Shown here: positions 1-51,008 of the stretch, piece after piece | How the letters are laid out: the number at the start of each line of letters is the position of its first letter | How positions within the stretch are numbered: position 1 is the first letter of the stretch | DNA from: Schmidtea nova | Taxonomy: Eukaryota | Length of the DNA: 64,000 bases | Reading direction: 5' to 3' | Assembly (NCBI GenBank): GCA_044892505.1 | Contig: CM097883.1 | Location: 276,644,001-276,708,000 of the forward strand | Notes under the pieces: model-generated | Database searches by the model: none | What the model saw: only the letters and a program-made list of their open reading frames with translations | Told to the model about the DNA's origin: nothing | Position numbers and translations under genes: made by a program

Positions 1-1894
1 CTTCCACTATATCTGGTCTATAGCTGACCACCAATGTTTCGCGTGTTTCGACTTCCTTATATACCAAAGACGAAATCACGTATGATTTTCCGTTGGCCTC
101 CAATACGCCATAGTAAGGGAAGTTTGAAACTGATGATTGGTGTACCGGTTTCCCGTCGTATTCTTTTATCCGAGGTACCCAATTTCTCTCTGGTCGCTGC
201 CAAAAACTAGGGTCTTCATTGTCCAAATCCTGGGGTATCTTTGCTGAATTTCCCGTTCCAACGAAATCCCCTTCTCTTATAATAATAGGTTCGCCCTTAA
301 CCTCCGGAATCTGTTCCATATCGGGTGGGATGAATGCTGTTTCGATTAAATCTTTGTCTTCCGTCGAGATGGGATTTGGTACTTTCTTTTTGATCTTTAG
401 ATCTTGTAACCTTACAACAGGTTCTTGACTTTTCTTTGGGGGTGACTTTTCTACTGAAGTCAATTTTTTAAAAGTCTTAGTAACTTTTTCCAAGAGCTTG
501 TTCTCTTTCTTTGGTGGATTTTCTGGCACGATCTTTGTAATTGTACGGCTGTCTCCGTGTAAAGTTAAACGCATCTCTGTTTGCTCCTCACCCTCGCTTT
601 CGCAGGTGGCGTAATCGTCTTCATCAGCTAAGGATATAGCTGGAGGGGATAGTGATTCTTCCTCAACTATCTTTTGCAATTTGGTTGATAATGGTTGTTC
701 CTGGGGTAAGCTCTCAATAGCTTTCCTTTTACTCGTTTCTTGTGGCTGTATTGTATGAACCATTTTGACTTCTGATGTAATCGTCCCACTACGATTACCT
801 GGGGTAATGTCATCTACCCAAACTTCTCTCAGTTTAAGGTAAATATTACGTGTCGTTTCCACGTCATTTTCCGTTTTCAGATCTGAACGGTTTAGTTCTT
901 CTTTTTCGAGAATTGACTTTGATAAATACGCGAGTCGATAATGTCCGTTACATTTCTTTAGTTCTCTCGCTTCCAGGCATTTTGCTGCTCCTAGTTCTCT
1001 AATGCCCAATACTCGTTGAGGGTGTAACTGGACTGCTTCCAAGAAATCGTTGACTTGGAGACCTATTAGAATTTTCCCATCACATAATTTTCTAATACGG
1101 TCTGCGCAATCCTCTCCATCAAATTGTCCGATGATTTCTTTTTCGGTCATACCATGCACGTGCGATTGGTAATGTTTGACCTGGTTTCTGGGTGTAACCA
1201 CCGTGTTTAGTATTAAATCACCACAGTAGTTTGCTATCGAAACAGCCACCAAAGCTGGCTTTAAATAATCTCGCAAAGTTGCGTAATGCGCTGCAACAAA
1301 TATTGACAATCTATCTTCTTGATTGGGGTGCAGATTCATCCGAACAAAGGATTTGAATGATTTGAGATCGTTCTCATTCACATTATAGGTCCAGGCAGGT
1401 TCATTTTTCCACAATGATTGCACTGCCTTGCTAGGTTCCAAAATCTCTAATACCACAATAGTATTATATCCGTCACATTGGATGGAGATATTCTTTTCTC
1501 TGCCATCTCCGTTACTAATTTCTAGAGTTGATTCTGGTTGAAGTAGGATGGGTCCTGTGGCTCCTGCCATGAAGATTGTAAAGGGTTTATTGATCGCGTG
1601 AATCAGGAGATGGTGAGTAAATGTTGATCTGTTAAATTCCGCCATGTGTTCAGTCAACCGGGTGTTCTCACGGCTGGTAATTGTGACTATGCACATTTGT
1701 CTCTTAGGCGATCCGAGAAACTTAAAATTGTTTGGGATGCCGGTGCAGTGCCCGTAATACCAATAGCGACGACCTTTCCGTGCTTCTGCGGATATCGCTT
1801 TTTCGATGTTTCGATAAATCAGTTTTTCCTTCTGTACTGTTTGCACATCGATAGTGCTATAACGCTGCTTGTATTGTGACACTTGATGCTTCAT
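1..1894 (-). CDS. Accessory ORF (>630 aa, open to window edge) with a REXO4/ISG20-like DEDDh exonuclease fold lacking the Exo I acidic residues
   Basis: Manual translation from ATG 1894 (MKHQVSQY...) shows no stop down to position 1; the frame is also open upstream to the TGA at 2083-2081. Residues at about 818-1306 read ALVAVSIANYCGDLILNTVVTPRNQVKHYQSHVHGMTEKEI...DGKILIGLQVNDF...LAYLSKSIL...ENDVETTRNIYLKLREVW, paralleling REX4-family motifs. Confidence 0.8.
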   Translation of the reverse strand, partial: MKHQVSQYKQRYSTIDVQTVQKEKLIYRNIEKAISAEARKGRRYWYYGHCTGIPNNFKFLGSPKRQMCIVTITSRENTRLTEHMAEFNRSTFTHHLLIHAINKPFTIFMAGATGPILLQPESTLEISNGDGREKNISIQCDGYNTIVVLEILEPSKAVQSLWKNEPAWTYNVNENDLKSFKSFVRMNLHPNQEDRLSIFVAAHYATLRDYLKPALVAVSIANYCGDLILNTVVTPRNQVKHYQSHVHGMTEKEIIGQFDGEDCADRIRKLCDGKILIGLQVNDFLEAVQLHPQRVLGIRELGAAKCLEARELKKCNGHYRLAYLSKSILEKEELNRSDLKTENDVETTRNIYLKLREVWVDDITPGNRSGTITSEVKMVHTIQPQETSKRKAIESLPQEQPLSTKLQKIVEEESLSPPAISLADEDDYATCESEGEEQTEMRLTLHGDSRTITKIVPENPPKKENKLLEKVTKTFKKLTSVEKSPPKKSQEPVVRLQDLKIKKKVPNPISTEDKDLIETAFIPPDMEQIPEVKGEPIIIREGDFVGTGNSAKIPQDLDNEDPSFWQRPERNWVPRIKEYDGKPVHQSSVSNFPYYGVLEANGKSYVISSLVYKEVETRETLVVSYRPDIVE

Positions 1895-2080: not shown

Positions 2081-2242
2081 TCATAATCTCGTCATCATAA
2101 TCCCATCAACCGACTCAATGGCCTGACTGAAGAATAGTTTCATCCAAACTCCCATTGCTATCAATGTAGTGATCATAGCTAATACTGCTGACGTAATAAT
2201 CCATACCCAACGGGTAATTTTCCCAAGTGAGTAATGGGGTTT
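2081..2242 (-). other. Transmembrane-anchor peptide encoded in the -1 frame relative to the polyprotein end
   Basis: The -1 frame reads KPHYSLGKITRWVWIITSAVLAMITTLIAMGVWMKLFFSQAIESVDGIMMTRL*. It opens just before A-AAC-CCC (2242-2236). Confidence 0.6.
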
Positions 2243-5200
2243 ACTTCATTAACTTCACACTGACAACTTTTAATATAGCTTTCTGTTGATACTGTTGGTT
2301 TTACCATTTTCAATCCTTTCAATCTCTGCCATATTGCAGGATGAATGACGTAACTTTCTTTCCGTATCAATGATGTAACCGATTTCGTTGTCGTCGATGA
2401 TTGTGGTAATTTCAAAGAGATAACTTCATAAAATACCTCATTCCATTCATCGACTCCTGGCTTTTGTTTATTATTCATATAAGTGATATGAGCTTCCCAC
2501 TCCACTGAGCTGTTCCACTTGAGATTTTGTTTCTCAATATCTTCATTTAGCCACAATTCTTGTACTATTTCCTTGTCGGAATGGATTTCTATCTTTACTC
2601 TATCCACTCCTTGTTTTGGTTGGCTGAAGGTAATCATACCTTGTTGGATATTTATTCTAACTTTCCTTTTGAAATCTGCTGTCTTCAACTTCCATTGTGA
2701 CTTTGAAAAATCTGACCATCGTCCAAACATAAAATGTTGAACAAGTATATCTAACAGATATTCCTTTTCTGCTCGTAAGTCCTTTATGACTTTCACTCTT
2801 GTGTTTGAATCCAATGTAAAATGGAAACAACGTCGTTCGCAAAACGAGAACTTGAATTTTGTATCATTTTCAGCTAATGATATTATCCTAAATTCCTGGA
2901 AAGATCTTCTAAATGCGAGATCTTGAATTTGTACCGCTGTTGGAACAAATGTCTTTACACAGGATATAAGGCAACTTATTATTACCAAAAACGTAACTGA
3001 TTTTGGCACGCCTCTTGATCGTAATGGATATCTGTCTGAGACTGGTTCTGACCCTTTATCCTCCTTTTTCTTAATCGGATCTTTCTCCGTGACCGCAACT
3101 TTCTTGCATCTGTTAGCATGTACCATTATTGGTTCAGCTTTTCTATTTGCTACTAATTGCAAGATTAAATTCGTGTCTGTGGTTCTCAAAACCTCATATG
3201 GTCCTTTGAAGTTTCTCATTAATTTAGGTGATAAGCCCTTTTTATTATAATGGCTTTCCAACATCACCTTGTCTCCAACTAACATGCCATGTCCTTTGGC
3301 TTTCTTATCATGATAATCTTTCGACGCTTCCTGACTGAATTTTATACTAAGACCTGCTTTTGTCCATGCTTCTTGCATTCTTTCTCTCATTTCCATGAGA
3401 TAATCCTCTTGGTCTAAATACTGCGTTGCTTTTGGGAAAAACAACAAGTCTATAGGCATTTTACTTTGCCTTAAATACATGAGATAGAACGGCGTTTGTC
3501 CCGTACCCTCATGAACAGCATTTCTGTATGCGAATAAGCATGATGGAATATGTATATCCCAATCCGTTTGCCCTGAATTTACGTATGATGCTAGCATATT
3601 TGCGAGCGTTCCGTTAAATCTCTCTACCAATCCGTCTGTTTGTGGATGATACGGAGAGGTATTCAATTTTAAAATGTCGAAATAATCATTTATTCCTTTT
3701 AACAGATTACTCATGAAATCTGCTCCTCTATCTGTTAGTAGTTTTGTAGGTACTCCATACCTAAAAACAATTTGCTCTACGAAAATCCTGGCTATCGTAT
3801 CTGCCTTGTGATTCGGTATCGGATAAGCCTCCAGCCATTTTGTCAGGTAATCGCAAAATACCAATATGTATTTGTTACCACTATTTGATTCTTTGAATGG
3901 CCCTAAAACATCCATCGCCGTCATTTCCATCGGTGTGGATGGTACTGGCATTGGTTTCATTGGCACATGAGGTTTCTTCCCCGTATTTCTCCTGGTGATA
4001 CAGATCTTACATGTCTGACACCATTCCTGTACGTCTTGTTTTATTGTCGGCCAGAAATATTTCTGCTTCAACCTTGACAATGTTTTCCTGGAAGACAAAT
4101 GCCCTCCCAGTGCTCCATCATGATATTGTAACATCAAGGCTTCCCGATATTTCTTAGGGACCATTATGACATTATCCCTTACGTCTACATATTTGACTAA
4201 TCCTTCTTCTAGAATAAATTTGTCTCGATTTTTCTCCCAATATTTATTAAATTCCGTCGGTATGAACTTTGCTTCTAAAGCCTGTCTGATTTGGTTTATC
4301 TCTTCATCCGATTGTTGTGCTGCCATTAAATCCGCGAGTCTGTTTGCTTCTCTTGTAAGTGCGAAGATTGTTCCTTCTAATCTTCCTTCTTTGATATCTT
4401 CTGCTTCATCACCTTGGTCCATTCGCGAAAATGCATCTGCATTCCCATTTTGATGTCCTTTTCGGTAATGTATTTCGATGTCATATGGCTGCAAGATCAA
4501 TGCCCATCTAACCAACTTTGATGTATCCATAGTATGCTTTGTTAACCACTGTAATGGTCTATGATCCGTATACACAATGATCTTTCGACCCCATAAATAT
4601 GTCCTGAATTGGTGTATAGCATACACAATTGCTAATGCTTCTAATTCGATAACTGCATAATTCTTTTCATGTGGTTTTAATCCTCTGCTAGCATACGCTA
4701 TGGCATATTCGTCTCCTAGGTCATCTCTTTGACCTAACACAGCACCAATACCCCGAGTGCTGGCGTCCGTCATGACCAAAAATTGTTTCTCAAAATCTGG
4801 AAACCGTAATATAGGAGGTTCCACGAGCATCCTCTTTAGCATATCAAATGCTTCCTGTTGCTCTTTTCCCCATACAAATTTGACATTTTTGCCCTCTAAT
4901 TGTGTCAGAGGAAATGCTATTGCCGAAAAGTTCCTGATGAACTTTCTATAATATCCCACTAAGCCCATAAACCCTTTTATATGTTTGACTGTCTTTGGCT
5001 CTGGAAAATTCTTTGCTTTCTCAACATTTGCTGGATCTGGTTTTACTCCATCCTTCGAGATAATGTGACCGACATAGACTACCTCTGATTCGGCCCATTT
5101 ACATTTCGATGGTTTTACCTTAAGATTTGCATTAATTAACCTTTTGAATACGTCCTCTAAATGTTCTAAATGTTTTTCCAAATCTGGAGAAAATACTATG

Positions 5201-8200
5201 ATGTCATCTATGTATACCATTGCATGATGAACATCCATTAACATTAGATTCATGGCTCTTTGAAACGTTGCCGGCGCTCCTGTGAGACCAAATGGCATTA
5301 CTGTATATTCGAAGTGTCCAAGGCTTGTAGAAAAAGCCGTAATTGGTATTGTCTCCTCTTTTAACTTGATTTGGTAAAATCCCTTCTGAGCATCCATCAC
5401 TGAGAAATATTTTGAATTTCTCATGCGTCCGTAAATGTAATCCAGTAATGGTAATGGGTGACTATCCTTGCAAGTTGCTTCGTTTACCATTCGATAGTCG
5501 TTGCATAGTCGTACCGTTCCATCCTTTTTGGCCACCACTATCATTGGTGACTGGTATGGTGATTTACTATGCCTGATGATGTTATGTTTTAACATCAGTT
5601 TTACCTGCTTATCGACAGGTTCTTCCAAGCTAAACGGAATTCGATACGGTCTCAGTTTTATTGGTTTCATGTTGTTAAGAACAATTTCATGTTCCAACAA
5701 GTTCGTCTTTCCCAGATCATATTCGTGCTTGGCGAATACTTGATCATATTTTCTTAATAACATGTTGACTTGGATATTCTCTCTTCGTGAAAGAGCTTTG
5801 CTATTTGCCGTTGGCGCATCATAGTACTCGATGTCTGATTCTCTATTTTCTGCCTTTATTGTCAGGACAGATCCTCCATTTGGTAATTGATCCGACTTTG
5901 ATACTCTCCCTACTCTTGTATCTGGGTACAATTTTAATGGTTTTATATCTAAATTGGCTACCCGAATTGGTATTCTGCCATTTTCAACTTTACCAATGCT
6001 ATGCGTAATTGGTAGATTATATTTTGCTGAGAACCTTTCATCTGGTTCGAATACAACTTCTCCTTCCCACTGTTCGCTAGTGGACACGAAACATACTGTT
6101 TCTGCTCTGGGTGGTATTATCATCGTATGGTCGATGAAAACTGTATCATCATTATAAACTTTTCTTTTCTTACCGATTGATCTAACTAACAATCCGGTAG
6201 CACAGTCAAATACAACTCCTTTTAATCTTCTTAAAAGATCCATTCCTAGTAGACATTCTACTGGACAAGTTCTCATGACTATAATATCATGACGAAATTC
6301 TTGGTCACATAGCTTGATGTTACAAGCTAGAGTACCAATAATATTCAATGATGTGCCTGTAGCACCTGTTAGCGAAACTCTTGAGGTTTCCATTGATTCC
6401 AATTCTTTTTGATTTAATAGTGTTGCCTCTATGATGGTGCCGTCTGCTCCTGAATCTATCACTGCATTAACTGTGTGTCTGTTTATTTTTATCTTTATCA
6501 TGGGTTTCTTATCCAAGTTCACCCCATTTGCCATCAAAATAGTAGCATGCGTTATCCCGATGGTATTTGCTCTGAATTTCTCTGCTTCATCTTGTTCGGT
6601 ATCACTCAATTTTGGATTATATTCCTTAAATTTAGCTTTTATTGCTTCTAACGACTCGATAGGATACAGTTTCCCTTCATTTTCTAACGATAATGATATG
6701 CTTTTACCAGTCTCTCGAGCATCTTTGTCGAGAATTTGTTGATGTTTAGAAATGTACATTTTGTTTCTTGGAGTGGTTAAAGCATAATTTTGTTTGCCCT
6801 CTCCTGATGTCTTTTGAAACTCTGGCGATTCCCCCTTTGGCGCTGTTGGCAAGCTTCTAAGATATGGTAATTGCATATATCTTGGGCTTCTTTTCAATCT
6901 AGGTGATGCTGTATTGATTGTAAATTTCTGGTCTGCACTATCGTATTCATCTTCTGAAATCATACTTTTGTCGAAAATCTGTTTTGTCGCTTCGTAAGGT
7001 GGTTGATAATCCCGATATTTCATTTTCCTTAACTGATGATTCGGTTTTTTATTGTAGTTTCTTTTTCGACTTCTACTTTGCCTCTGAACTGTATTAAGAG
7101 AGTCTCCATTACCTCCTCCTTCCGAATTGTTATCGTCCCGATAACTTGTATTACCCTCCATTTCGATTCCAATAATCTCGTGTTTTACCAAGCTTCTCTG
7201 TTTGATTGTCTTTATTTCTTTACGATGATGTTTAAACAATGCAAATTCCGCACACATAGGACACAATCCTAGTATCAACTTCCAAGACCATCCACCGATT
7301 TTGAATATACTGTATGTGGAGATTAATTGTGTTATTATTAACTTTAGAATTACGAATATTGCATATATTCCTGAGCAGCCTGCCACGAAAATACCAAAAT
7401 TGGTAAACCTTCCCCATATTTTCATCATCACATTTTTAGCTGCTTCTTTATAATGATCTGGACCGAATAATAAATTGTAATCTGGTCTCATTTCGTTTGC
7501 TTGGTAAATTGTTCTTATGATTTCAGTGATACCTCTTTCTCTTACTTGAGGGAATAGCAATGTCTGTCTTGCCTCCTCAATGTCTGCTGAAGTGTAAATT
7601 CCTCCTTGTGATAATTCATCGAGTGATTTAAATTCCATGTTTTCCTCGAGTTTCGTGACTTCCAATGTTTCCACCTTTCTATTAGATGGTTTTCTGTCAG
7701 GTAATGAGATCCATCTATCATTTACCTTGTATAACGGTGATATTGCTGGATTGCAAATTGAAGGTTGAGGCTTTTGTTTTTCATCCAAAAGTCTCCTCGT
7801 AACTGGCATTACAAATCGTATTTTGTTTTGATATGACACTGGTAATTCTAGAGTACATTCATTATACCGAGTTAATTGTACCTCTATGGGTTGACATTGA
7901 TAGCTGTATATAGCTTCCCCCATAATTCTGCCAAACATTCCATCTTCTAGCAACATAGGTGTCACTAGATCCGGATTCACAATTGATATCGCTAATCGAT
8001 TTCGAACTATTTCGCGATTTAGTTTGCAATCATTGAGTATTACTTCCTGATACATTTCCTGCATTTGTCCTTGCAGATCATGATATAAATAATCTATTTT
8101 ATTATTTATATAGTTCGTGATTTTGATATCCTGGCTGTGAATATTCTTGGCTTTTTGGATGAATGTTTTTGACAAATATAATCCTTTATAGTTGGTCTCA

Positions 8201-11200
8201 TACACCACTTTTCCGCATTTTGTCTTCTTATCTTTTCTGACAAATCTGATTGCATCTTTCTTATCTTCTGATACTAATACTAGAGGTGTGATTTCCTCAC
8301 TAATATCCTCTTTTTGCTGTTTGTTGATCCTTTTCAACGTCTTTTCTTTATCCCAAATTCTTTCTCTTTTGGGTAAATCTCGATACTTTGTCCCGTTCAA
8401 CTTATGGAAATTAATTTTCTTTAGTAATGACAATTCGCAATGGTCTAGTATTTGATCGTATAATAATGTAATGACCCCTGTTCTGCAGCTTCCAAATTTC
8501 GCAAGGCACTGAGGGTGTGCCATTAATCTTCCTGATAATACATCGAACGTTCCTTCGTATTCTCTTAATTCGATTGAATAGTCCTCGATATCTACGACAA
8601 AACTTACCAACTCCGATCCGCGAGTTTTCTTTCTTCCCGTACAGGTACCATCTGATCCGATTGATCCTCCTCGTGTAATGGTTACTCCCAGTGTTTTTCC
8701 TACTTCCGCGGCGATGGTTACCTCGTTATCGATTCTTAAAGTACCTTTTCGAAAGGCGTCTAGACAATCCTCTGGCAATATGTTGACAGGTCTAGGTATT
8801 AGAGTGGCTGATAGAAAAGCTGTATAGCTGTGTGAACCACAATAATATTCAAACGTTGCTCTTTGGACTCTACATTCTCTTATCTTAGTTCTGAAGAATT
8901 CACTTTCTTGGTAGACATAGTATTCGACCTTTTCTCCTGTTTGGACCTTTTCTGGATGTGCCTCTTTGCACTCAATTGCATCTACGAGCGAATATATCCG
9001 AGCTAACTTTGGATCACTGCAATCAAACGCTGTCATTGTGTTTGTCTGTTTCATTATCCCCATCATTACTAAAAACATTAATATCATATTCGTCATATTC
9101 CCCATTCCTCCATTTTCGAGGTGGTTGTTATTCATAGCCTCTTCCACAAATTCATATCGTGGTTTATGTTTCTCCTCTTCCCAGAAATTATTTTCACTCA
9201 TCCACGTTCCGAGATAATGCTCCGTTATCTCCGTGATCTGGTCTATTTCTCGATTAATAAGCTTCTTCTCATTGCCTGCGCGGGCTAAAGCATCTTGAAT
9301 CAACATAGATAATGCTGTCACTATTTTTCCTTTAGATAACCCATCTTGTATGAGTGTCTCTAACATACTCTGTATCTCGTTTTGCGGTACCCCTCTAGGT
9401 AATCTCCTCATCGTCTTCGCGATTGACTGTGTTACTTTATCCACTTGAATTCCTTTAATCCGAGTAATCTGCCATTCTGGCTTTAATATTCCTATGATCT
9501 GTTTTAATCTCTTCCATGTCAGAGATTTTTCTGGTATATGTACACCTTCGTCTCTCATATCAACATCCCTGGCTATTCCTGACAGAGTTTTCATCTGAAC
9601 CTGTTTAATGGTTTCTTGGTTTAATTGCTCCGTTGGTGGAGGTTTCATTTGATCTTTCCTAGGCCTTCCTCGCCTATCTTTCTTTGTCTGCCATGCTGGC
9701 CTGATAGTTTCTACCGCCTGAGAAGTTGAAGCTCCCACGTTAGTTTCCTCATTATTGAGTCTGATTTCCTCTTCTCCGTGATTATCGGCATCGATATCTA
9801 CATTAAATGGTTGTGTTTCAACATTACCAGTGACCATTTCATCTGGTAACCGTAATGCTGACCATTGAGATTCAGGTGGCTCTACGGGAATGATTGCTAC
9901 CGTTGTAGTTTCAAAAGGTAGACATCCCACATCTACTAAATATTCATCATCATCCACTTGTCCTCCATGAATCATAATCAAGAATATACCGGTAGTCTGC
10001 CCAGTATCTATTAAATCCTTTCTCAACGTTATCACTTTGCTAAAACAACGATATAACCTCGTCATGGGTTCTTTTCCCGATATTCGAATGTCTAAAGTTA
10101 TCATGCCTTGTCGATGTGCTTGATGACGTATTGCTGTTCCATTTTTTCTTATTAACATTTTTATTTCTGTTTGAAAAGAACTAGTTTCTTTTACTACAGG
10201 TAGTAATATAGGAATTATATTCTCCAATGATTCTACTGGTATGCGCAATACCAACATCCAGTCTAATATTTCCTTGATTGTTTCTCCATCCCTCGGAGAT
10301 TTCTGCAGCTCTATCTTCAGACGTTGCTCTATTTGTTGGACCTCCTCCAACTGTGCAATTTCCATTTGTGTGAGTAGAAACACACTGTCTTGATCCACTA
10401 CTGGGACCGATATTCCTGTCAGTTTCGTTGTGAGTTTCGTTACCCTTCCTGGTAATACACCATTTTGTAGTAGTGTTTCCCCAACTACTAACTTTTCTCC
10501 ATATAAATAAAAATCATATCTATTATGTTTCAATTTCATCATTGTATCTGACAACTTATCTGTTCGACATCTTACATTCATGTCGATGTTAAACTCCTGC
10601 TCCTGAGGAAGTTTTATGTTTAAATGCGAATCCTGAAGATCCCATTCATGCTCCATTGCAGTTCCTATCTTTCGTAGGATTTTATGTATGTCGCTATTAT
10701 ACCTTGGATCATCTTCGACCTGAGATATTAATTGTAATATCTTTCCAATTTCACTATTCTTGATATCACCTTGTGATAATTTCTCTAATTCTCTAGTCAG
10801 TCTCTGCTGATACTCATATCTGGAATCCACCAGTTTTAAACATTTTGCTAGGGTATCTGACCCTTTCTTGGCCTTTGTTTCCTTGAACAAAGCCTGGTCG
10901 AACTCGCTCAGTATGGTACTCATACTGGGTTCGTCATCATTATCAGAATTTGTCTCTGATTCTATTACCTCATGATTCTCGCTGCTGGAATCCATGGGTT
11001 CACTATTTCCTTGCTCATCTGTGTAAGCATCATGATTTTTCTCAGCTGAAATCATCAAAACTGTTCCTTGCCCAACTGTGTGAGCATCATCGCTTTCCTC
11101 AATGGGATTCATTATAACTGTTCCTCGCCCATCCATGTGAGCATGATTTTTCTCAGCTGAAATCATAAAAACTGTCTCTTGCCCAACTGTGTGAGTCTCA

Positions 11201-12468
11201 TTTATTTCTTCAATTTTATTCATCAAAACTGTTCCTCGCTCATCTGTGTGAGCATGATTTTTCTCAGCTGAAATCATAAAAACTGTCTCTTGCCCAACTG
11301 TGTGAGTCTCATTTATTTCTTCAATTTTATTCATCAAAACTGTTCCTCGCTCATCTGTGTGAGCATGATTTTTCTCAGCTGAAATCATAAAAACTGTATC
11401 ATCTCGATCCATTAGCCGTGCTAATCGATTTTTCTCCTCCTGGATTTCCATTTCCAGTTGTTGCAAATACGTCAATTCTTTATCGTGATTGACCATGAAC
11501 GTAGTTTTCGGCTTGCTGACATTACCACTATTGGTAATCCTACTATTCGTATTATTACTCTGATTTTGAGGACACGACCTCAGAATATGCCCGAATTTTC
11601 CACATCCGTGACATTTTATCTTCCCTGATGAATTCACATCATCCCTTTTAATATTAAAATTCCCATTCGTTGGGAGATTCCTAACTCTACAAACGGAAGC
11701 AACATGCCCTCTGCGTTTGCATTTATCACACTGCAAGTTCGTGACTCTACAGTTCTCAACACTATGATTATTCATACCACATTTAGTACACTGAATACCC
11801 CTACGAGTATCAGCTACCTTCTTACTGTGGCAATCTTTTGATATGTGCCCTTTCTTATGGCAGTTAAAACATTCAATTGCTGGCTTCTCATTATTTACCA
11901 TAAATGATGTAGCTTTTTCTAAGCTGCTTTCGATTACGACAGCTTTTCTTGTTAATTCCCAAAAATCATCTCCCGTGTGGAGAATCAATGCATTTCTCAT
12001 TACATTTGTGAATCCAGCTAATAATTGGTCTTTAACCATAGCTTTAGTTGCATCATTCCAGGTAGTTCTGAGCCCAAATGCTCTTTCTGCTAATAACAAT
12101 AATTGATAGGAAAATTCTCCTACATGTTCATTTGCATTCTGCTTCCTGTGATAAAATTGTTGTCGGAAAATTCTACTTGAATCTCCCGGTAATATTCTAG
12201 CCGTTAGTGATTCTCTCATCTTTTCCCATGTACCTGGTTTATCTGCTGCTGGTAACGCCATAATATCATTGTAATTTTCCCTTGCCATACCCTTAAGGTA
12301 AATTGGCAGTCTTTGTATCATTATTGCATCTGGATACCCATAGGCCTTTGCCATCTGATAATACTCTGACATAAACTCCGGAAATTCCCCTGGATCTCCG
12401 CTAAATGCCTTGACAGGTAAAGCGGGATATCTAGCAAAAACATTATTCTCTTCAGCCATGTCCTCCAC
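2179..12468 (-). CDS. 3429-aa Gag-glycoprotein-Pol-ectodomain polyprotein
   Basis: Uninterrupted ORF in the track, with recognisable Gag, viral glycoprotein, PR, RT, RNaseH and IN motifs in that order. Confidence 0.95.
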   Translation of the reverse strand: MEDMAEENNVFARYPALPVKAFSGDPGEFPEFMSEYYQMAKAYGYPDAIMIQRLPIYLKGMARENYNDIMALPAADKPGTWEKMRESLTARILPGDSSRIFRQQFYHRKQNANEHVGEFSYQLLLLAERAFGLRTTWNDATKAMVKDQLLAGFTNVMRNALILHTGDDFWELTRKAVVIESSLEKATSFMVNNEKPAIECFNCHKKGHISKDCHSKKVADTRRGIQCTKCGMNNHSVENCRVTNLQCDKCKRRGHVASVCRVRNLPTNGNFNIKRDDVNSSGKIKCHGCGKFGHILRSCPQNQSNNTNSRITNSGNVSKPKTTFMVNHDKELTYLQQLEMEIQEEKNRLARLMDRDDTVFMISAEKNHAHTDERGTVLMNKIEEINETHTVGQETVFMISAEKNHAHTDERGTVLMNKIEEINETHTVGQETVFMISAEKNHAHMDGRGTVIMNPIEESDDAHTVGQGTVLMISAEKNHDAYTDEQGNSEPMDSSSENHEVIESETNSDNDDEPSMSTILSEFDQALFKETKAKKGSDTLAKCLKLVDSRYEYQQRLTRELEKLSQGDIKNSEIGKILQLISQVEDDPRYNSDIHKILRKIGTAMEHEWDLQDSHLNIKLPQEQEFNIDMNVRCRTDKLSDTMMKLKHNRYDFYLYGEKLVVGETLLQNGVLPGRVTKLTTKLTGISVPVVDQDSVFLLTQMEIAQLEEVQQIEQRLKIELQKSPRDGETIKEILDWMLVLRIPVESLENIIPILLPVVKETSSFQTEIKMLIRKNGTAIRHQAHRQGMITLDIRISGKEPMTRLYRCFSKVITLRKDLIDTGQTTGIFLIMIHGGQVDDDEYLVDVGCLPFETTTVAIIPVEPPESQWSALRLPDEMVTGNVETQPFNVDIDADNHGEEEIRLNNEETNVGASTSQAVETIRPAWQTKKDRRGRPRKDQMKPPPTEQLNQETIKQVQMKTLSGIARDVDMRDEGVHIPEKSLTWKRLKQIIGILKPEWQITRIKGIQVDKVTQSIAKTMRRLPRGVPQNEIQSMLETLIQDGLSKGKIVTALSMLIQDALARAGNEKKLINREIDQITEITEHYLGTWMSENNFWEEEKHKPRYEFVEEAMNNNHLENGGMGNMTNMILMFLVMMGIMKQTNTMTAFDCSDPKLARIYSLVDAIECKEAHPEKVQTGEKVEYYVYQESEFFRTKIRECRVQRATFEYYCGSHSYTAFLSATLIPRPVNILPEDCLDAFRKGTLRIDNEVTIAAEVGKTLGVTITRGGSIGSDGTCTGRKKTRGSELVSFVVDIEDYSIELREYEGTFDVLSGRLMAHPQCLAKFGSCRTGVITLLYDQILDHCELSLLKKINFHKLNGTKYRDLPKRERIWDKEKTLKRINKQQKEDISEEITPLVLVSEDKKDAIRFVRKDKKTKCGKVVYETNYKGLYLSKTFIQKAKNIHSQDIKITNYINNKIDYLYHDLQGQMQEMYQEVILNDCKLNREIVRNRLAISIVNPDLVTPMLLEDGMFGRIMGEAIYSYQCQPIEVQLTRYNECTLELPVSYQNKIRFVMPVTRRLLDEKQKPQPSICNPAISPLYKVNDRWISLPDRKPSNRKVETLEVTKLEENMEFKSLDELSQGGIYTSADIEEARQTLLFPQVRERGITEIIRTIYQANEMRPDYNLLFGPDHYKEAAKNVMMKIWGRFTNFGIFVAGCSGIYAIFVILKLIITQLISTYSIFKIGGWSWKLILGLCPMCAEFALFKHHRKEIKTIKQRSLVKHEIIGIEMEGNTSYRDDNNSEGGGNGDSLNTVQRQSRSRKRNYNKKPNHQLRKMKYRDYQPPYEATKQIFDKSMISEDEYDSADQKFTINTASPRLKRSPRYMQLPYLRSLPTAPKGESPEFQKTSGEGKQNYALTTPRNKMYISKHQQILDKDARETGKSISLSLENEGKLYPIESLEAIKAKFKEYNPKLSDTEQDEAEKFRANTIGITHATILMANGVNLDKKPMIKIKINRHTVNAVIDSGADGTIIEATLLNQKELESMETSRVSLTGATGTSLNIIGTLACNIKLCDQEFRHDIIVMRTCPVECLLGMDLLRRLKGVVFDCATGLLVRSIGKKRKVYNDDTVFIDHTMIIPPRAETVCFVSTSEQWEGEVVFEPDERFSAKYNLPITHSIGKVENGRIPIRVANLDIKPLKLYPDTRVGRVSKSDQLPNGGSVLTIKAENRESDIEYYDAPTANSKALSRRENIQVNMLLRKYDQVFAKHEYDLGKTNLLEHEIVLNNMKPIKLRPYRIPFSLEEPVDKQVKLMLKHNIIRHSKSPYQSPMIVVAKKDGTVRLCNDYRMVNEATCKDSHPLPLLDYIYGRMRNSKYFSVMDAQKGFYQIKLKEETIPITAFSTSLGHFEYTVMPFGLTGAPATFQRAMNLMLMDVHHAMVYIDDIIVFSPDLEKHLEHLEDVFKRLINANLKVKPSKCKWAESEVVYVGHIISKDGVKPDPANVEKAKNFPEPKTVKHIKGFMGLVGYYRKFIRNFSAIAFPLTQLEGKNVKFVWGKEQQEAFDMLKRMLVEPPILRFPDFEKQFLVMTDASTRGIGAVLGQRDDLGDEYAIAYASRGLKPHEKNYAVIELEALAIVYAIHQFRTYLWGRKIIVYTDHRPLQWLTKHTMDTSKLVRWALILQPYDIEIHYRKGHQNGNADAFSRMDQGDEAEDIKEGRLEGTIFALTREANRLADLMAAQQSDEEINQIRQALEAKFIPTEFNKYWEKNRDKFILEEGLVKYVDVRDNVIMVPKKYREALMLQYHDGALGGHLSSRKTLSRLKQKYFWPTIKQDVQEWCQTCKICITRRNTGKKPHVPMKPMPVPSTPMEMTAMDVLGPFKESNSGNKYILVFCDYLTKWLEAYPIPNHKADTIARIFVEQIVFRYGVPTKLLTDRGADFMSNLLKGINDYFDILKLNTSPYHPQTDGLVERFNGTLANMLASYVNSGQTDWDIHIPSCLFAYRNAVHEGTGQTPFYLMYLRQSKMPIDLLFFPKATQYLDQEDYLMEMRERMQEAWTKAGLSIKFSQEASKDYHDKKAKGHGMLVGDKVMLESHYNKKGLSPKLMRNFKGPYEVLRTTDTNLILQLVANRKAEPIMVHANRCKKVAVTEKDPIKKKEDKGSEPVSDRYPLRSRGVPKSVTFLVIISCLISCVKTFVPTAVQIQDLAFRRSFQEFRIISLAENDTKFKFSFCERRCFHFTLDSNTRVKVIKDLRAEKEYLLDILVQHFMFGRWSDFSKSQWKLKTADFKRKVRINIQQGMITFSQPKQGVDRVKIEIHSDKEIVQELWLNEDIEKQNLKWNSSVEWEAHITYMNNKQKPGVDEWNEVFYEVISLKLPQSSTTTKSVTSLIRKESYVIHPAIWQRLKGLKMVKPTVSTESYIKSCQCEVNEVNPITHLGKLPVGYGLLRQQY
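2236..3000 (-). other. Post-integrase extension: hydrophobic signal-like segment, one or two FN3-like domains, Ser/Thr stalk
   Basis: RYPLRSR then VTFLVIISCLISC; IKDLRAEKEYLLDILVQ...GRWSDFS (FN3 L-x4-Y-x3-V pattern and WSxWS-like motif); sequons NDT and NSS; stalk PQSSTTTKSVTS. Confidence 0.55.
3140..4330 (-). other. Integrase domain
   Basis: HDGALGGH...CQTCKIC; MDVLGP; TDRGADF; LVERFN; GPYEV; no chromodomain seen. Confidence 0.93.
4425..5760 (-). other. Reverse transcriptase and RNase H domains
   Basis: RLCNDYRMVN, MPFGLTGAPATFQR, VYIDDIIVFS, TDASTRGIGAVL, ELEALAIV, TDHRPL, NADAFSR; catalytic residues intact. Confidence 0.95.
6200..6510 (-). other. Retropepsin (aspartic protease) domain
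   Basis: VNAVIDSGADGTII ... CLLGMDLL. Confidence 0.9.
7200..9105 (-). other. Chuvirus (Jingchuvirales)-like fusion glycoprotein embedded in the polyprotein
   Basis: Signal-like MILMFLVMMGIM, then AFDC, CRVQ...YYCG, GSIGSDGTCTG, CLAKFGSC, YETNYKGL, YINNKIDY, GRIMGEAIYSYQCQP, CTLELPV...FVMPVTRRLL, GGIYT, and WGRFTNFGIFVAG leading to a TM segment. The motif order matches the chuviral G family as I recognise it. Confidence 0.85.
9653..9684 (-). other. AT-hook motif
   Basis: KKDRRGRPRKD fits the R-G-R-P core with basic flanks. Confidence 0.6.
9886..10623 (-). other. Two putative ubiquitin-like (beta-grasp) modules separated by a helical segment
   Basis: FYLYGEKLVVGETLLQNGV (10432-10623) and LIMIHGGQVDDDEYLVDVG (9886-10104) resemble the ubiquitin/SUMO LIFAGKQLEDGRTLSDYNI segment; neither ends in GG. 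Confidence 0.4.
11010..11397 (-). repeat. Coding tandem repeat, 111 bp / 37 aa, about 3.5 copies
   Basis: TVFMISAEKNHAHTDERGTVLMNKIEEINETHTVGQE occurs twice identically, then a diverged third copy and a partial fourth. Confidence 0.97.
11570..12468 (-). other. gag: Gag: capsid-like domain plus four CCHC zinc knuckles
   Basis: FSGDPGEFPEFM...LPIYLKGMA; CFNCHKKGHISKDC, CTKCGMNNHSVENC, CDKCKRRGHVASVC, CHGCGKFGHILRSC. Confidence 0.9.
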
Positions 12469-12528: not shown

Positions 12529-12546
12529 ATCACGTCGGGCTCACCA
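12529..12546 (-). promoter_or_regulatory. Primer-binding site complementary to the 3' end of tRNA-Trp
   Basis: TGGTGAGCCCGACGTGAT differs at one base from the tRNA-Trp PBS TGGTGACCCCGACGTGAT, and lies 3 nt after ...CCGAACA. Confidence 0.85.
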
Positions 12547-12549
12547 AAA

Positions 12550-13358
12550 TGTTCGGTTCGTATCAGTGGTTTACGACGAACACAGAAATATAAATATATA
12601 TTTGATACTTTAGTTTGATTATCGGACTCCAAACGATAATCCGCTTATTAATTATAAATAAATTATATGTTTTAGGTTGTGTGTAAAGAAAAACAAGATC
12701 TAATTCCTTTTAATAATATGTATTGTGAAATATGTAAATCAATGTACAATATAATAAAATAGCTGCTAAGCAAAAGTTAGAGAATCGGTTATACAAACCG
12801 TCCTAAGATGTTTAAGAACGAAAGCTGGACCTAAAAGGCTCAACAGCTCCGACTAAATGAAAGGACACAAGATGAGGGGTTTCCCTGTAGTTTAACCGCG
12901 ATAGTGACAACCCAGAATTGGTTGTCACTGTGACTTAATAATTTTCCCTTCTAATAATTTATTATTTAACGATTTTGCTGAAGGGGAAAAATAGTAATAC
13001 AACTATTTCCCCGTGATCGATTTATAAGATTTAAAACAAAACTAGGAAAATTACCAGCTACTAAAGATTATTCCAATTTAGGGAAATTATCACGAACGAA
13101 ATTCAAGCTAAGCTTCTTGTAATACTTCTGCCGTAAAATTAATTTCTCCAATTCACAAATTTGTCAAACTAAAATTCTAAAATTCACTTCGGTAAAATTT
13201 ATGTTCTGTAAACACTTATGTTTCTCTCTCTACTTCTGTCAAAATTACTTTCTGTTTCAACTGATTTTGCAATCAGTTTATATACAAATTATTTTCTCTC
13301 ATGTAGGTCTAGACGACCACCTATTACTAACTACGTGTAGGTCGAAATTGACCTTACA
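12550..13358 (-). repeat. Putative 5' LTR (~809 bp)
   Basis: Ends in ...AACA just before the PBS; candidate start TGTAAGG at 13358, beyond which the sequence becomes low-complexity AT. The outer boundary is unconfirmed because the partner LTR is off-window. Confidence 0.6.
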
Positions 13359-13580
13359 AAATATTACTTTTAAAGTAATTTATTATTACTATATATATCT
13401 TATTATTACTATTTAAATTTCTTATGTATTTATTTATTACTATATTTATTATATATTATTTAATTATTACTGTATTTAATCTATATTTATTTATAGTAAT
13501 TATTTATTTATTTTCTATTTATCTATTTATTTATAGTATTTTTTAATTACTATTTATATTTATTTATTTACTTATAATAT

Positions 13581-15605
13581 TTAATTACAAAAACCCCGAG
13601 ATCCCTTGATCTCGAACCCTAACAGTCCTTCATCCTGTGACATTTCTTCATGAAATCTCTTTCTTTGCCGAACTCTTTGTTGCTTATAGTCAGTATTAAT
13701 ATCACATTTTTTAGCCAGCTCAGTTGCTTCATTCTCAATCTGTTCGAACTCAGATTCAAATTCACTACGCATGTTTTTCATATCGTTTTGAAATAGTTGA
13801 ATCAAATGAGAAGCTGTTGCCAAATCAATACTACTTCTCTGCAAATATGTGGACAGACTGAAAGCCTTATCTAGCACTTTTTTCCATAATATTAAAAGAA
13901 CTAAGAATTTGTATGCATAAAGTGTTACAAGAATACCCTTTGCCTCAGCCACCTGTTTAGAAGTACAGTTTTTTAACTCACCATCCACAATTCGTTGCAG
14001 GGCAACTAATAGTGCTGGTAAATTCTGCAAGACTGCATCTACAGCTGATTTCCTGGATGCCCATCTGGTTTCGCAAAGTCTTTTTAGAGTTAATGTAAAC
14101 GATTTTATATGATTGCATTGTTCTTTTAATATTGAAAGACGAGGTAAACTGCCAGAAAAAAATGTATAAAAACTTTCAAGGGTTCCAAAAAATAACTGAG
14201 TTTGAACATTGGAGGTTACTGTGTCAATTAGAATTAAATTTAAATTTGGTGCACAACAGTGGGTAAAGAGCGCATTTGGAGCAATCTGCCTAACTCTTGC
14301 TTGGAGACCTGATATTTCCCCCGACATTGTGCTAGCTCCATCATATGACTGACCATAACTCATAGTTATTGACAAATCCAAGTTTTCAATTGCTGAAACA
14401 AAAACGTTGAAAAAATCTGGGGCACTTGCTCCCGGTAATTCACTGAATTTTTTAAACCTCTTTACTGCATCGCCATTTTCTGTTACATATCTTAAAGATA
14501 AAGAAAACTGGTCAATGCTACTTATATCAATAGTTGAGTCAACAATCACTGCAAAATACTTAGCTACTTTGATTTCATCCACAATATTTGATAGAATCTG
14601 AGATGATATGGATTGTATCAGATCATTTTGTATATCGGGTCTGAGATATGTTGCATTTCGATCAATCATTAATAAATGTTGTTCCAATATTGCATCATTT
14701 TTAGCCAACAGTTTAATCAGTTCAAAGAAATTCCCTTCGTTTGTCACTGGTGAACCTAAGCCTTGATACTCACGATGGCCACGGAATGCCAATCCTTGTT
14801 TTCCCAAAAAAAGTACTGCATCAATGATACGTTTTAAAATCATCCTATTTTTTCTATTTCTTTCTTTTCTGTTGTCAGAAGACCAGACAACACAATTCTA
14901 TCGTTAAACAACCGGAATTTTGTAAGAAATAGTTCTTTCTCTGCTTTTTTGTGACTTTCGCTACTTTCATGTTTTTCAATTTTGTGCGTGCCTTAAGCAA
15001 AATTCTTGCAGCCAATATTTGGATCACTTCAAGTATCGGATCGACTAGCAAAAAGCCAACAAGCAAAACAAATCATTATATTAGCTTTTGGTGAGTAGAC
15101 CAGCCAATGTCTATCAATTTCTCGACCACCTTTTACTTGTTTCTTCTTATACCAATTAGCACTGAAATGACGTCCAGTTTCATCTTTTGGGAAATTTTCA
15201 AATTTATCTTTAAGACCCAGCTGACACGGACTTAACTCAAGTAGTGCACGAACTAGTTCTGGCGGCACAGGTTTGTCACAAAACAGATGTGGATCTGTTG
15301 GGTATTCCATGTTTGGGTCAATAACTGCACGAAGTCTTATTCTAACTGTGTCATCTTCGTCCTCCACAATAGGGTCTGTTGACGTGATTAGGCCTACTGT
15401 TGAATCAGAACCCACTTCCTGAATAGTCACGGCAGCCGGAGTTGTGGTGTTGTTATCAACTCCTAGATTTGTTGTGAATTCTTTTTCTGACACGGAAGAC
15501 GTCGCAGACATTGTTGGATTGCTGAATGAAAAATATGCATCCAATTTTGTATATTTTGAAGATTCTCTTTCACGATCTTCGACTTCTTTTTTCCTCTTTT
15601 TATCC
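13581..15605 (-). pseudogene. hAT (ZMYM1-like/DUF4371) transposase, frameshifted and truncated at both ends
   Basis: TTF-type zinc finger WLVYSPKANIMICFACWLF; KHESSESH in a shifted frame; LGKQGLAFRGH, DSTIDISSIDQ, YDGASTMSG, HCCAP (HCxAH altered), CETRW; no C-terminal dimerisation domain. Confidence 0.88.
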
Positions 15606-17820
15606 TGGTGGGTTGTTGATCGTCAATATGACCTTGACGTTACTATGGCTCTCATCAACAACTCAACACATAAAACATTTAAACTACCATCTTGTTACCC
15701 GTCACTATGTAACGTTGGTACTGTAACAAGTGGGTGGGTATTCGCAATCAGTGAGCGTCGTCAATACGAAACTATGATTGACCGGATATCTCCTGGGTCC
15801 AAGGGCTACCGATAGAAGGTTTAATGCCCATTTTGTCCCTTCTTCGACGATTTATCTGTAAGCTTTCAATAAAAATTTTCATCGGAAATTCAACATAAAC
15901 ACTCTACATAACTATAAATTCATTATTGCATCCAAATAAATTATTCCGAGCATCAAAAACACTAATATAACCCTATATTTTACCAATATTGCATTTTATG
16001 ATAATTAATACATAAAATATTATATTTTTATAGAAAAATTTTAATCTGCATTTGAAATTTAAGAAAAAATTTTAATTATTACCGTAATTTTATCGAGTTT
16101 AGAAATAATAAAAATAAAATTTCCGTTTGTTTAAAATTGCTAATTTAATCAAAAGGACAAATTTACTCAATTTAAAAATTATATTAATTTTAAATGTAAT
16201 TTTCTGAATTTTTCACTAAATTGATTAATTAACGATTTCTATAGTTCAGATCAACAAGAAATGGATCTCCCCAGAAACTACGAAGTCAGAGGAAAATTCT
16301 CCCACCCAAAATGGGTCAAACCAACTAGAATTCCAGCTCCTACGAAGCAAAATTGCCCGCTCTACCGACCAAGTAAAATTTTGATTATTTCCGAATTATA
16401 ATTTATTTTGAACAATTTTAGAAAATTTCTTGAAGAGAATATGTTGAAACTGGCCCTTCAAGCACTGTAAACCGAAAAATTCCTTGCCGGAGATTCTTAT
16501 CCCTCAAACTGAATGACCATCAATTTTTATCAATAAATTTTTAAATAATTTTTTTTCGTCTTTACTCTTTTTCGTTTGAGTTTTTATTATTTTTATGAAA
16601 TTTTTGTAAATGGGAAATTAAAATAAACTGTAATGTAAATGGCCTATTTGATTTTTACTAAGTTTGGCTGGGTATATTTAATTTTATATGGTATGGTTGA
16701 ATGATAGATATAAGTGAATGAAATTTTTGTATGGGTTTTCTGGATGTATGATGCCGACTAACATAACTGTGTAGAATTTTCAGTATGGTTTGCTTGTGTG
16801 TATATAACTATTGAATGCTAATAAATGATTCTGTGTATGTGTGTATATTGTATTTTAAATATATGTTGCTTGTGTATTAGTATGGGAAATGTTATTGAAT
16901 GAAATGGATGTAATTTTTTGCAAATAGGGATGCGTTATGATTTTTGAGATATCGTGGGGGTATTTATAATATACTATATATAAATTATATAAAATATTTT
17001 TAAAATTAAAATAATAATAATAATTTTTATATTAAAATAATAATAATAATTTTTATAATATTTTTATAAATTTTAGATTTATAATTTTACGAAAATAATA
17101 CAATAATAAAATTTCCAATTTTTATATTATAAATTTTTATAATACTTTTTATAAGTTTTAAATTTATAATTTTATGAAAGTAATATAATAATAAAATTTC
17201 TAATTTTTATAATATAAATTTTTATAATCGAATTTTTATATTTTAAGTATATATATATATATAGTAAAAAAAATTTTTCCTATAAAATTTTGAAATTTTG
17301 GATTTTTTAAAATGATAAAATTTTCAATATAATAATAATATTTTCGATTTAAAATTTTTATGGGTTTCAATATAAGTTTTGATTTATAAATTCTTAGGAA
17401 TTTTATAAAATAACAAAATCTTTTATATCATAACAATATTCGGAGAATTTTTGGTTCACAATTTTTCATTATAAAAATTTTTCCAATATAATAAAAAGTA
17501 AATTTTTATTTTTTGATCGAAACGAAATCCACATCATAATAAATTTCTCATCCATAGATTTCGAAATCTAAATAAGCATTTAATCTAAAAAGTTTTTATA
17601 TGCTAAATAAAAATAAAATAAAAATAAGTTATAAATTTTTCAACGAAATTTTTTCGACATCGAATAAAGTTAATTTCGGTTTCATTATTATTCCATCGGA
17701 TTTGAGCATTAATTCGAACGATTTACTTTTTAATATCGGTTTTTAATATTCTGGATCTTGGATGAGAAGAAAATTATTGTGAAGGTGAAGGCGAAGGACG
17801 AGTAAAATGTTTTTGCATAA
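15606..17820. repeat. Copy A of an unclassified dispersed repeat (collinear with 53924-58690)
   Basis: 15606-15860 closely matches 53924-54178 (shared CTCCTGGGTCCAAGGGCTACCGATAGAAGGTTTAATGCCC); 16897-16970 matches 57659-57740; 17761-17815 resembles 58631-58685. The right boundary is approximate. Confidence 0.7.

Positions 17821-23539: not shown

Positions 23540-51008
<27,469 letters not shown>

Follow-up and report, generated by a model that had tools for sequence, protein, structure and literature searches.

A compact Burro-like Gag-Env-Pol retrotransposon in Schmidtea nova with a predicted four-pass membrane polyprotein

We have analysed a 64,000-nt stretch of the genome of Schmidtea nova (contig CM097883.1, positions 276,644,001 to 276,708,000; hereafter the window) that contains a long terminal repeat (LTR) retrotransposon of 15,064 nt, read on the reverse strand. 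Its features are collected in Table 1. The element has TG...CA LTRs, a tRNA primer site, a polypurine tract and a 4-bp target-site duplication, and its Pol domains are arranged as protease (PR), reverse transcriptase (RT), RNase H and integrase (IN). By domain order and LTR hallmarks it is of the Ty3/gypsy type (Metaviridae). It lies in a hAT-type transposase frame (DUF4371; window 13581-15622, (-)) that continues past the 3′ LTR. All 40 matches listed for the element are 98-100% identical to it, and exact 20-mer marks from gag, the glycoprotein G and IN occur 72, 84 and 97 times in the genome, such marks overlooking diverged copies. The family of the window element (A) is young and multicopy. 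The same genome contains at least three more families, including those labelled B, C and F, with open reading frames (ORFs) of 3,387-3,442 amino acids (aa) and a G that is ~42-44% identical to that of the window.

Table 1. Features of the retrotransposon, in window coordinates unless stated otherwise.
Feature	Position	Strand	Remarks
3′ LTR	G000:C2:276642561-276643635		left of window
ORF2	1..1894	(-)	continues 67 nt left of window; DEDD-exonuclease-like; acceptor-like AG (1898-1897) 2 nt before ATG
TM3	2141..2206	(-)	predicted C-terminal anchor of GP2; in frame in siblings, displaced in window copy
ORF1	2179..12459	(-)	3,426 aa, stop-free
GP2 predicted lumenal domain	2212..2943	(-)	FN3-like sandwich ~2661-2398
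Signal 2	2944..3003	(-)	aa 3153-3172, after basic RYPLRSRG motif
Pol	3100..6513	(-)	protease 6513-6217, RT 5532-5059, RNase H 4797-4483, integrase with GPY/F-like module 4161-3100; predicted cytosolic loop
Patch 2	7231..7293	(-)	aa 1723-1743; family-wide motif, Cys-Pro break in this clade
TM1	7330..7398	(-)	aa 1688-1710, predicted stop-transfer anchor of G
G ectodomain	7411..9036	(-)	PF24664 Monjiviricetes-type fusion glycoprotein; class III, herpes gB-like; 14 conserved Cys
Signal 1	9037..9096	(-)	aa 1122-1141, internal signal; predicted cut after aa 1141
Bcl-2-like domain	9175..9606	(-)	BH1-like at aa 1036, BH2-like at aa 1086
Gag-G spacer repeats	11031..11400	(-)	three in-frame tandem copies, 111-nt (37-aa) spacing
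Gag	11470..12459	(-)	weak Retrotrans_gag match (E 0.023), four CCHC knuckles
Primer-binding site	12529..12546	(-)	complementary to 3′ end of host tRNA-Trp
5′ LTR	12550..13624	(-)	1,075 nt, TG...CA, identical to 3′ LTR

ORF1 encodes in order Gag, a spacer, a Bcl-2-like domain, a signal-like segment (signal 1), the glycoprotein G, its transmembrane (TM) segment TM1, a tail, PR-RT-RNase H-IN, a second signal-like segment (signal 2) and a second putative glycoprotein, GP2. Pfam matches follow along it as CCHC knuckles, PF24664, aspartic protease, RT, RNase H and integrase. Gag, G and Pol share one frame, uninterrupted by a stop or shift, in the window and in families B, C and F. Signal 1, TM1 and signal 2 are the sole 11-residue Kyte-Doolittle peaks above 2.2 across 3,426 aa. 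They stand at equivalent positions in families B and C (G ~42% identical), in family F and in polyproteins from other sources, and this recurrence across families and sources argues against chance. A first-pass annotation of the DNA had proposed that such segments thread the polyprotein through the membrane and uncouple Pol from Gag. Its two signal-like segments and the TM after G were confirmed, at 9096-9052 (aa 1122-1136), 3000-2944 (aa 3154-3172) and 7395-7333 (aa 1689-1709), but a further TM at 2210-2140, assigned to the -1 frame, is not a recoding feature.

The ectodomain of G matches PF24664 with E = 3e-89, and its structure model (pLDDT 89) matches HSV-1 gB with E = 6.3e-15, so that the fold is predicted to be gB-like, disulphide-bonded and of the lumenal type. 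We aligned 128 G-containing proteins. All 14 ectodomain cysteine columns are shared (median 14/14). In 84 of 97 stand-alone G relatives an N-terminal signal region comes first and mature G begins at residue 15-53; the other 13 are N-terminally cut. Where G is followed by Pol in one protein (G-then-Pol), a hydrophobic segment is present at the place of signal 1 in all 13 polyproteins that cover the region. Near the predicted cut these have a small residue at -1 in 13/13 and at -3 in 12/13 cases, and the stand-alone proteins in 62/78 and 70/78 respectively. On this alignment signal 1 is the homologue of the N-terminal signal peptide of the glycoprotein family, with the (-3,-1) pattern of signal peptidase retained. 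Membrane-insertion energies (dG), used for comparison only, are -1.5 and -0.6 for signal 1 of families B and C, where the net charge before the segment is +4. The in-frame G-Pol fusion extends across lineages with G 28-47% identical to that of the window. Sequons in the G of stand-alone proteins are close in number to expectation (311 vs 322.7; 88 proteins). A distant relative, P0005 (22% in G), has the reversed order, Pol then G, in one frame. Two copies, L055 and L058, have lost signal 1 through internal deletions with differing breakpoints, keeping gag and Pol.

Upstream of signal 1, a four-element alignment of the preceding region matches Bcl-xL with E = 6.5e-6, and all 60 matches shown are of the Bcl-2 family; the Pfam Bcl-2 model points the same way, with sub-threshold scores, in three of the four members. 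The domain is also found in P0007, P0009, P0017 and P0025. About 30 aa separate the BH2-like motif and domain end from signal 1, and Bcl-2 proteins carry a tail anchor at just the place where signal 1 follows the Bcl-2-like domain. Cleavage by signal peptidase takes place at the lumenal face, so that the signal helix would go with the Gag-spacer-Bcl-2 product and hold it on the membrane. Gag would therefore be uncoupled covalently from Pol by the predicted cleavage, as the first-pass annotation held, yet it would not be released, contrary to that account, the helix staying as a C-terminal anchor. Many sibling copies are 111 nt shorter between the gag and IN marks.

The first-pass annotation made its topology depend on a second hydrophobic patch after TM1 (patch 2: GWSWKLILGLCPMCAEFALF; aa 1723-1742, nt 7293-7234) not spanning the membrane. 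TM1 scores as a span, with a median dG of +0.09 and values below 1.5 in 15 of 15 G-then-Pol proteins. Patch 2 has a median dG of +2.18, below 0.5 in none of the 15. A proline lies within it in 15/15 G-then-Pol proteins vs 7/99 stand-alone G, and in the model of G the patch 2 helix is interrupted at this residue. These features are in line with the requirement, and patch 2 is predicted to lie on the cytosolic surface of the membrane without spanning it. A cysteine stands beside the proline in 13/15 G-then-Pol vs 5/99 stand-alone proteins; it is a possible cytosolic palmitoylation site.

Parity is a stronger argument than the proline. Beyond integrase come signal 2, a putatively lumenal domain and a C-terminal anchor, and if patch 2 spanned, all three would be inverted with respect to charge bias, sequons and the FN3-like fold, and Pol would be lumenal. 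In the four-pass model the net positive charge falls on the N-side of signal 1 by 5:1 (3 ties) and of signal 2 by 6:1 (2 ties), and on the C-side of TM1 by 5:1 (3 ties) and of TM3 by 4:1 (3 ties). Signal 2 is present in eight of the nine polyproteins extending past IN and the C-terminal anchor in seven of the nine, that of family A being read from siblings. The intervening domain is roughly 210-320 aa long, and family F has the same layout. In seven proteins GP2 has 32 sequons vs 18.5 expected, and the comparison of families B and C indicates purifying selection, with proportions of nonsynonymous and synonymous differences pN = 0.23 and pS = 0.71 (near saturation). A low-confidence model of GP2 superposes on FN3 with Z = 8.4 and a root-mean-square deviation of 2.2 over 83 residues, and the atlas lead for the domain is FN3 at 0.90. 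GP2 is therefore predicted to be a second type I membrane protein, FN3-like, encoded after integrase. The earlier suggestion that Pol would stay attached to the cytoplasmic tail of G agrees with the predicted topology but is incomplete; with signal 2 and a second membrane protein following IN, Pol would be tethered at both ends. In silico, though only there, ORF1 thus has the alternating signal and stop-transfer segments and the (-3,-1) pattern of a multi-pass polyprotein. Two or three aspartic-protease-like domains occur in P0002, P0003 and P0004 (also in P0006, P0008 and P0015), and in P0002-P0004 one is placed right after the G tail and another past integrase. It may be speculated that these duplicated proteases could free Pol at both tethers.

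The C-terminal anchor was read from siblings, taking the best 30 loci of the 40 matches listed (135 candidates), 29 of them besides the window copy. All 29 siblings are one base longer than the window copy near 2208. The frame is open from signal 2 through TM3 to the stop in 27 of the 29, the other two having private premature stops, and the family stop codon is at 2083-2081. The longer form also appears in contigs from four public runs of a single study (type unrecorded), with depths of 481/488, 517/1108, 618/623 and 497/497. The family polyprotein ends in a membrane anchor, and the window copy is broken there. The one-base break may be a private mutation or an assembly error. No sibling shares the shift, and the segment annotated as a -1-frame TM is in frame in the family, so that claim falls. 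A GGGAAAA heptamer at 2224 is not needed, because siblings and run contigs read TM3 in frame; a programmed -1 frameshift at this site is ruled out by the same data, and the downstream fold is weak. An apparent frameshift is in this way removed as a false lead.

The explanation that we favour, and consider fairly probable, is a four-pass polyprotein in which Gag is anchored, G is lumenal, Pol is cytosolic with a tether at either end and a second type I membrane protein follows, all assembling together at the endoplasmic reticulum (ER). Gag, spacer and Bcl-2-like domain would be made in the cytosol. Signal 1 would then enter the translocon in the N-in/C-out orientation and be cut after aa 1141, leaving Gag held on the membrane by the signal helix much as Bcl-2 proteins are held by their tail anchor. 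G would fold in the lumen, TM1 would halt transfer and patch 2 would rest on the cytosolic face. The tail and PR-RT-RNase H-IN (~1,440 aa) would be cytosolic until signal 2 re-enters the membrane; GP2 would then pass into the lumen and be anchored by TM3. With a single ORF, synthesis would give as many copies of Gag as of G-Pol and GP2, all on one patch of membrane beside the mRNA that encodes them. Shared membrane tethering and the G tail, in place of a Gag-Pol fusion, would bring Pol to the forming capsid, and the protease of the element would later free RT and IN. The core of the first-pass proposal, an internal signal that parts G-Pol from Gag, holds comparatively: the signal is homologous to that of stand-alone G, TM1 is predicted to span and patch 2 is not. 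Delivery of Pol by the envelope glycoprotein (Env) in 1:1:1 particles, as also proposed, may occur. Atwood (1996) is said to have described an excess of Gag in Tf1 particles, brought about by regulated degradation. Since Tf1 particles can hold excess Gag, 1:1:1 at budding sites is not implied by equal synthesis.

A number of observations weigh against the four-pass reading. Signal 1 of the window copy is marginal, with dG = +1.4 and no basic n-region (net -1), and sequons in the G of the clade are below expectation (22 vs 37.1; 13 proteins). The dG of patch 2 is below 1.5 in 3/15 G-then-Pol proteins and is not distinguishable from that of the stand-alone proteins, whose median is +2.49 (p = 0.43). 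In a G tree calculated by a quick method from 54 aligned rows (14 G-then-Pol proteins and the first 40 others) the proline-bearing proteins form a single clade (18 rows, support 98), and the proline therefore counts as one event. Between families B and C no stretch is better conserved than patch 2 (91% identity), which is also near enough to TM1 to form a hairpin. The charge-bias counts are small and drawn from kin-related proteins. P0004 lacks signal 2. The single-sequence model of GP2 has a mean pLDDT of 42, with no Foldseek match under 1e-3 and no Pfam match. The Bcl-2-like domain was undetected in ten of the long relatives listed, so that the G-Pol layout does not depend on it, and no CCHC knuckle precedes G in P0002-P0004 and P0019, where a separate Gag or incomplete records are possible.

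Among alternative explanations, the one that survives best is a spliced RNA joining gag or the leader to PR. It would yield either a Gag-Pol fusion or free Pol, as in foamy viruses where Pol comes from a spliced RNA (PMC7828637), and G-Pol would be a by-product. Splicing itself is probable in the element, given the sequences around ORF2. By an ad hoc score, the two best acceptor-like sites among 1,051 AG dinucleotides of family A lie just before ORF2, and in families B and C a T-rich AG precedes the ATG of ORF2 by a few bases. A run of hydrophobic codons at 1960-1898 probably reflects no more than the T-rich acceptor tract. ORF1 of families B, C and F ends in two consecutive stops, and ORF2 begins 300-550 nt later in varying frames. 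ORF2 is probably expressed from a spliced RNA. It resembles a DEDD 3′-5′ exonuclease whose acidic motifs survive largely unchanged in families B and C but have degenerated in A; the atlas lead is RNase T at 0.84, and Pfam gave no relevant match for ORF2. A DEDD-like ORF2 was also read at L094:2324-3772.

If a spliced gag-PR RNA were packaged, copies without G would be expected. An IN mark lies downstream of 64 of the 72 gag marks, and none of these 64 gag+IN copies is shortened to the extent that G would be missing, which lowers the splicing explanation; the shortest gag-IN spacing is 6,382 nt vs the usual 7,786. The G mark persists in the four short gag+IN copies, whose breakpoints all differ. 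Five gag+IN copies lack the exact G mark, and G is present in the four that were read (the fifth is at C2:247.6 Mb, with a spacing of 30,573). Among ten IN-only copies read (full-length, truncated or deleted) there is no junction of leader or gag with the beginning of PR. In the interval from patch 2 to PR the best acceptor-like site of family A comes only 30th in rank and its place is not shared in B and C, and the G-Pol fusion stays in frame across divergent lineages. No processed ORF2-only copy was found when 76 ORF2 marks were compared with IN marks by eye, the single unpartnered mark belonging to a fragment that ends at 2925 and not at the acceptor. No gag-PR link was seen in run contigs, in the 15 of 53 joints shown or in the 12 of 30 with letters between, which is not evidence on splicing. 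In favour of the alternative, a donor-like GTGAG lies within the primer-binding site, so that its use would destroy the site and leave no processed copies, and a spliced RNA that is not packaged would likewise leave none. We consider a gag-PR or leader-PR splice unlikely.

Ranking below it, and to our judgement improbable, is a dual topology in which signal 1 is used part of the time. Chains that skip it would remain an uncut Gag-G-Pol precursor, held by a TM1/patch 2 hairpin and providing Pol linked to Gag as is usual, and the rest would supply Env. The position of signal 1, 1,120 residues into the chain, and its marginal character in family A would suit such behaviour, as would the high conservation of patch 2, its borderline values in 3/15 proteins and the depletion of sequons in G. 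Yet signal 1 is strong in families B and C by both dG and charge, its (-3,-1) pattern is kept in 12/13 proteins, and a reduced cytosolic G of 540 aa would stand between Gag and PR.

It is very improbable that patch 2 spans the membrane in all chains, in which case full-length Pol would be lumenal and inactive and a separate route to Pol would be needed. Some 60 mostly hydrophobic residues do follow the ectodomain, and patch 2 reaches a Kyte-Doolittle value of 2.0 over 15 residues. Against this stand the insertion energies and the proline-broken helix; the inversion of signal 2, GP2 and TM3 relative to charge bias, sequon excess and FN3-like fold; and the lack of any sign of a separate Pol route in copies or acceptor sites. 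Recoding at the 3′ end, with a -1 frameshift adding the last TM and stop readthrough fusing ORF2, is hardly credible: the in-frame GGGAAAA would allow it, as would the CAATTA that comes after the stop, a context of the readthrough type in plant viruses, but the frameshift is refuted by the 29 siblings that lack it, and readthrough is disfavoured as not common to families B, C and F, with their double stops and their ORF2 in varying frames.

In the polyproteins of flaviviruses, hepaciviruses and alphaviruses a capsid precedes an internal signal, a glycoprotein and its anchor, all on a single chain that signal peptidase cuts. The capsid is at first anchored by the signal, and the enzymes are in cytosolic loops. 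We liken the window element to them in its working and make no claim of homology, this element being reverse-transcribing with a class III fusogen. Unlike retroelements whose enzymes are packaged as Gag-Pol, foamy viruses make Pol other than as a Gag-Pol fusion and package it via genomic RNA, and they have an Env leader that forms a stable type II membrane protein (parts of PMC7828637 used here). The window element is similar in having Pol without a Gag fusion; it differs in that Pol is predicted to be membrane-tethered within the Env precursor. Tf1 and Tf2 of fission yeast make Gag and Pol 1:1 from one ORF (PMC7175516, in part). They differ from the window element in the absence of Env and membrane segments, and 1:1 synthesis need not mean 1:1 particles. 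Rotifer LTR elements contain DEDDy exonucleases as extra ORFs (PMC5408684, in part).

Env ahead of Pol in a metavirus is a feature that the window element shares with the nematode endogenous retroviruses of Sacco et al. in 2022, which reportedly have a continuous gag-env-pro-pol ORF. To our knowledge, infectious enveloped particles have been shown only for Drosophila gypsy. The closest described architecture is that of Burro/GYPSM1, a giant gypsy-like element of planarians with Gag, a BCL2-like motif, a mononegavirus-fusion-like Env and PR-RT-RNase H-IN in one ORF, reported as the first with an in-frame env between gag and pol (PMC6431247, in the parts used here). The window element likewise has a BCL2-like motif followed by Env and PR in frame. 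Burro is >30 kb with 4,873 aa, whereas the window element, at 15,064 nt with an ORF of 3,426 aa, falls short of giant size. The ubiquitin/SUMO-like, MATH, BIR, ankyrin and dUTPase-like domains of Burro gave no Pfam match in the window. A Ubi/SUMO-like motif of Burro occupies the place that matches aa 620-850 of the window protein (same parts of PMC6431247). One or two stretches of that region (window ~10600-9900, (-)) look ubiquitin-like by eye, and the relative P0001 has a weak UBX match (E = 0.006). The same parts of the Burro account are silent on signal peptides, membrane topology and a membrane protein after integrase.

Errantiviruses of GAG-ENV-POL order with an HSV/gB-type Env are described from Nematoda, Bryozoa and Platyhelminthes as multicopy and LTR-flanked, their ectodomains lying either between a signal peptide and a TM or between two TMs (Chary and Hayashi, PMC13524379, in part). 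The window element resembles them in its gB-type Env between gag and pol and its many copies of high identity. Compared by eye with the ectodomains listed there, G of the window is nearest to Smed_errantivirus_4 and those of families B and C to Smed_errantivirus_1 and 2. The main text of PMC13524379 makes no mention of splicing, frameshift, exonuclease or a single ORF. In the parts of it used here, Pol packaging and a glycoprotein after IN are untreated, and the mechanism of gB-type entry is called unknown. Gag-Env-Pol in one frame is an already published architecture, and the window element is a compact Burro-like example of GAG-ENV-POL. Three predictions, all well supported, were not found in print, namely the four-pass topology, the double role of the signal as an anchor for the Bcl-2-like product and the presence of a second, FN3-like glycoprotein: the literature searched contained no prior account of any of the three, which does not establish their absence from print.

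How Pol enters the capsid when Env splits Gag from Pol is a gap in papers on such elements, as far as the parts used here go, and co-tethering at the ER, with Pol held at both ends, is our proposed answer. GP2 would be a candidate entry partner for the gB-type fusogen, filling the gap named in those parts of PMC13524379, although a receptor-binding role is conjectural. A bolder generalization, which we put forward tentatively and hold to be possible more than probable, is that a clade of env-bearing retrotransposons makes its whole replication polyprotein as a four-pass ER protein and so packages RT in a third way beside Gag-Pol fusion and RNA-bridged capture, with the Env signal serving as the tail anchor of Gag-Bcl-2, Pol as the tail of a gB-like fusogen and the FN3 glycoprotein as its attachment partner.

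The genes for tRNA-Trp, the primer tRNA of these elements, form a tandem array at G000:C3 from 128,022,754 (L114, L115), with a spacing of ~282 nt. The tRNA-Trp 3′-end pattern has 1,984 matches, all of them on one strand, and the first 100 matches listed all lie inside the C3 array. Two unrelated repeats are present elsewhere in the window, an AT-rich tandem array of ~111 nt at 38663-39900 and an exact 144-nt tandem duplication at 27185-27472.

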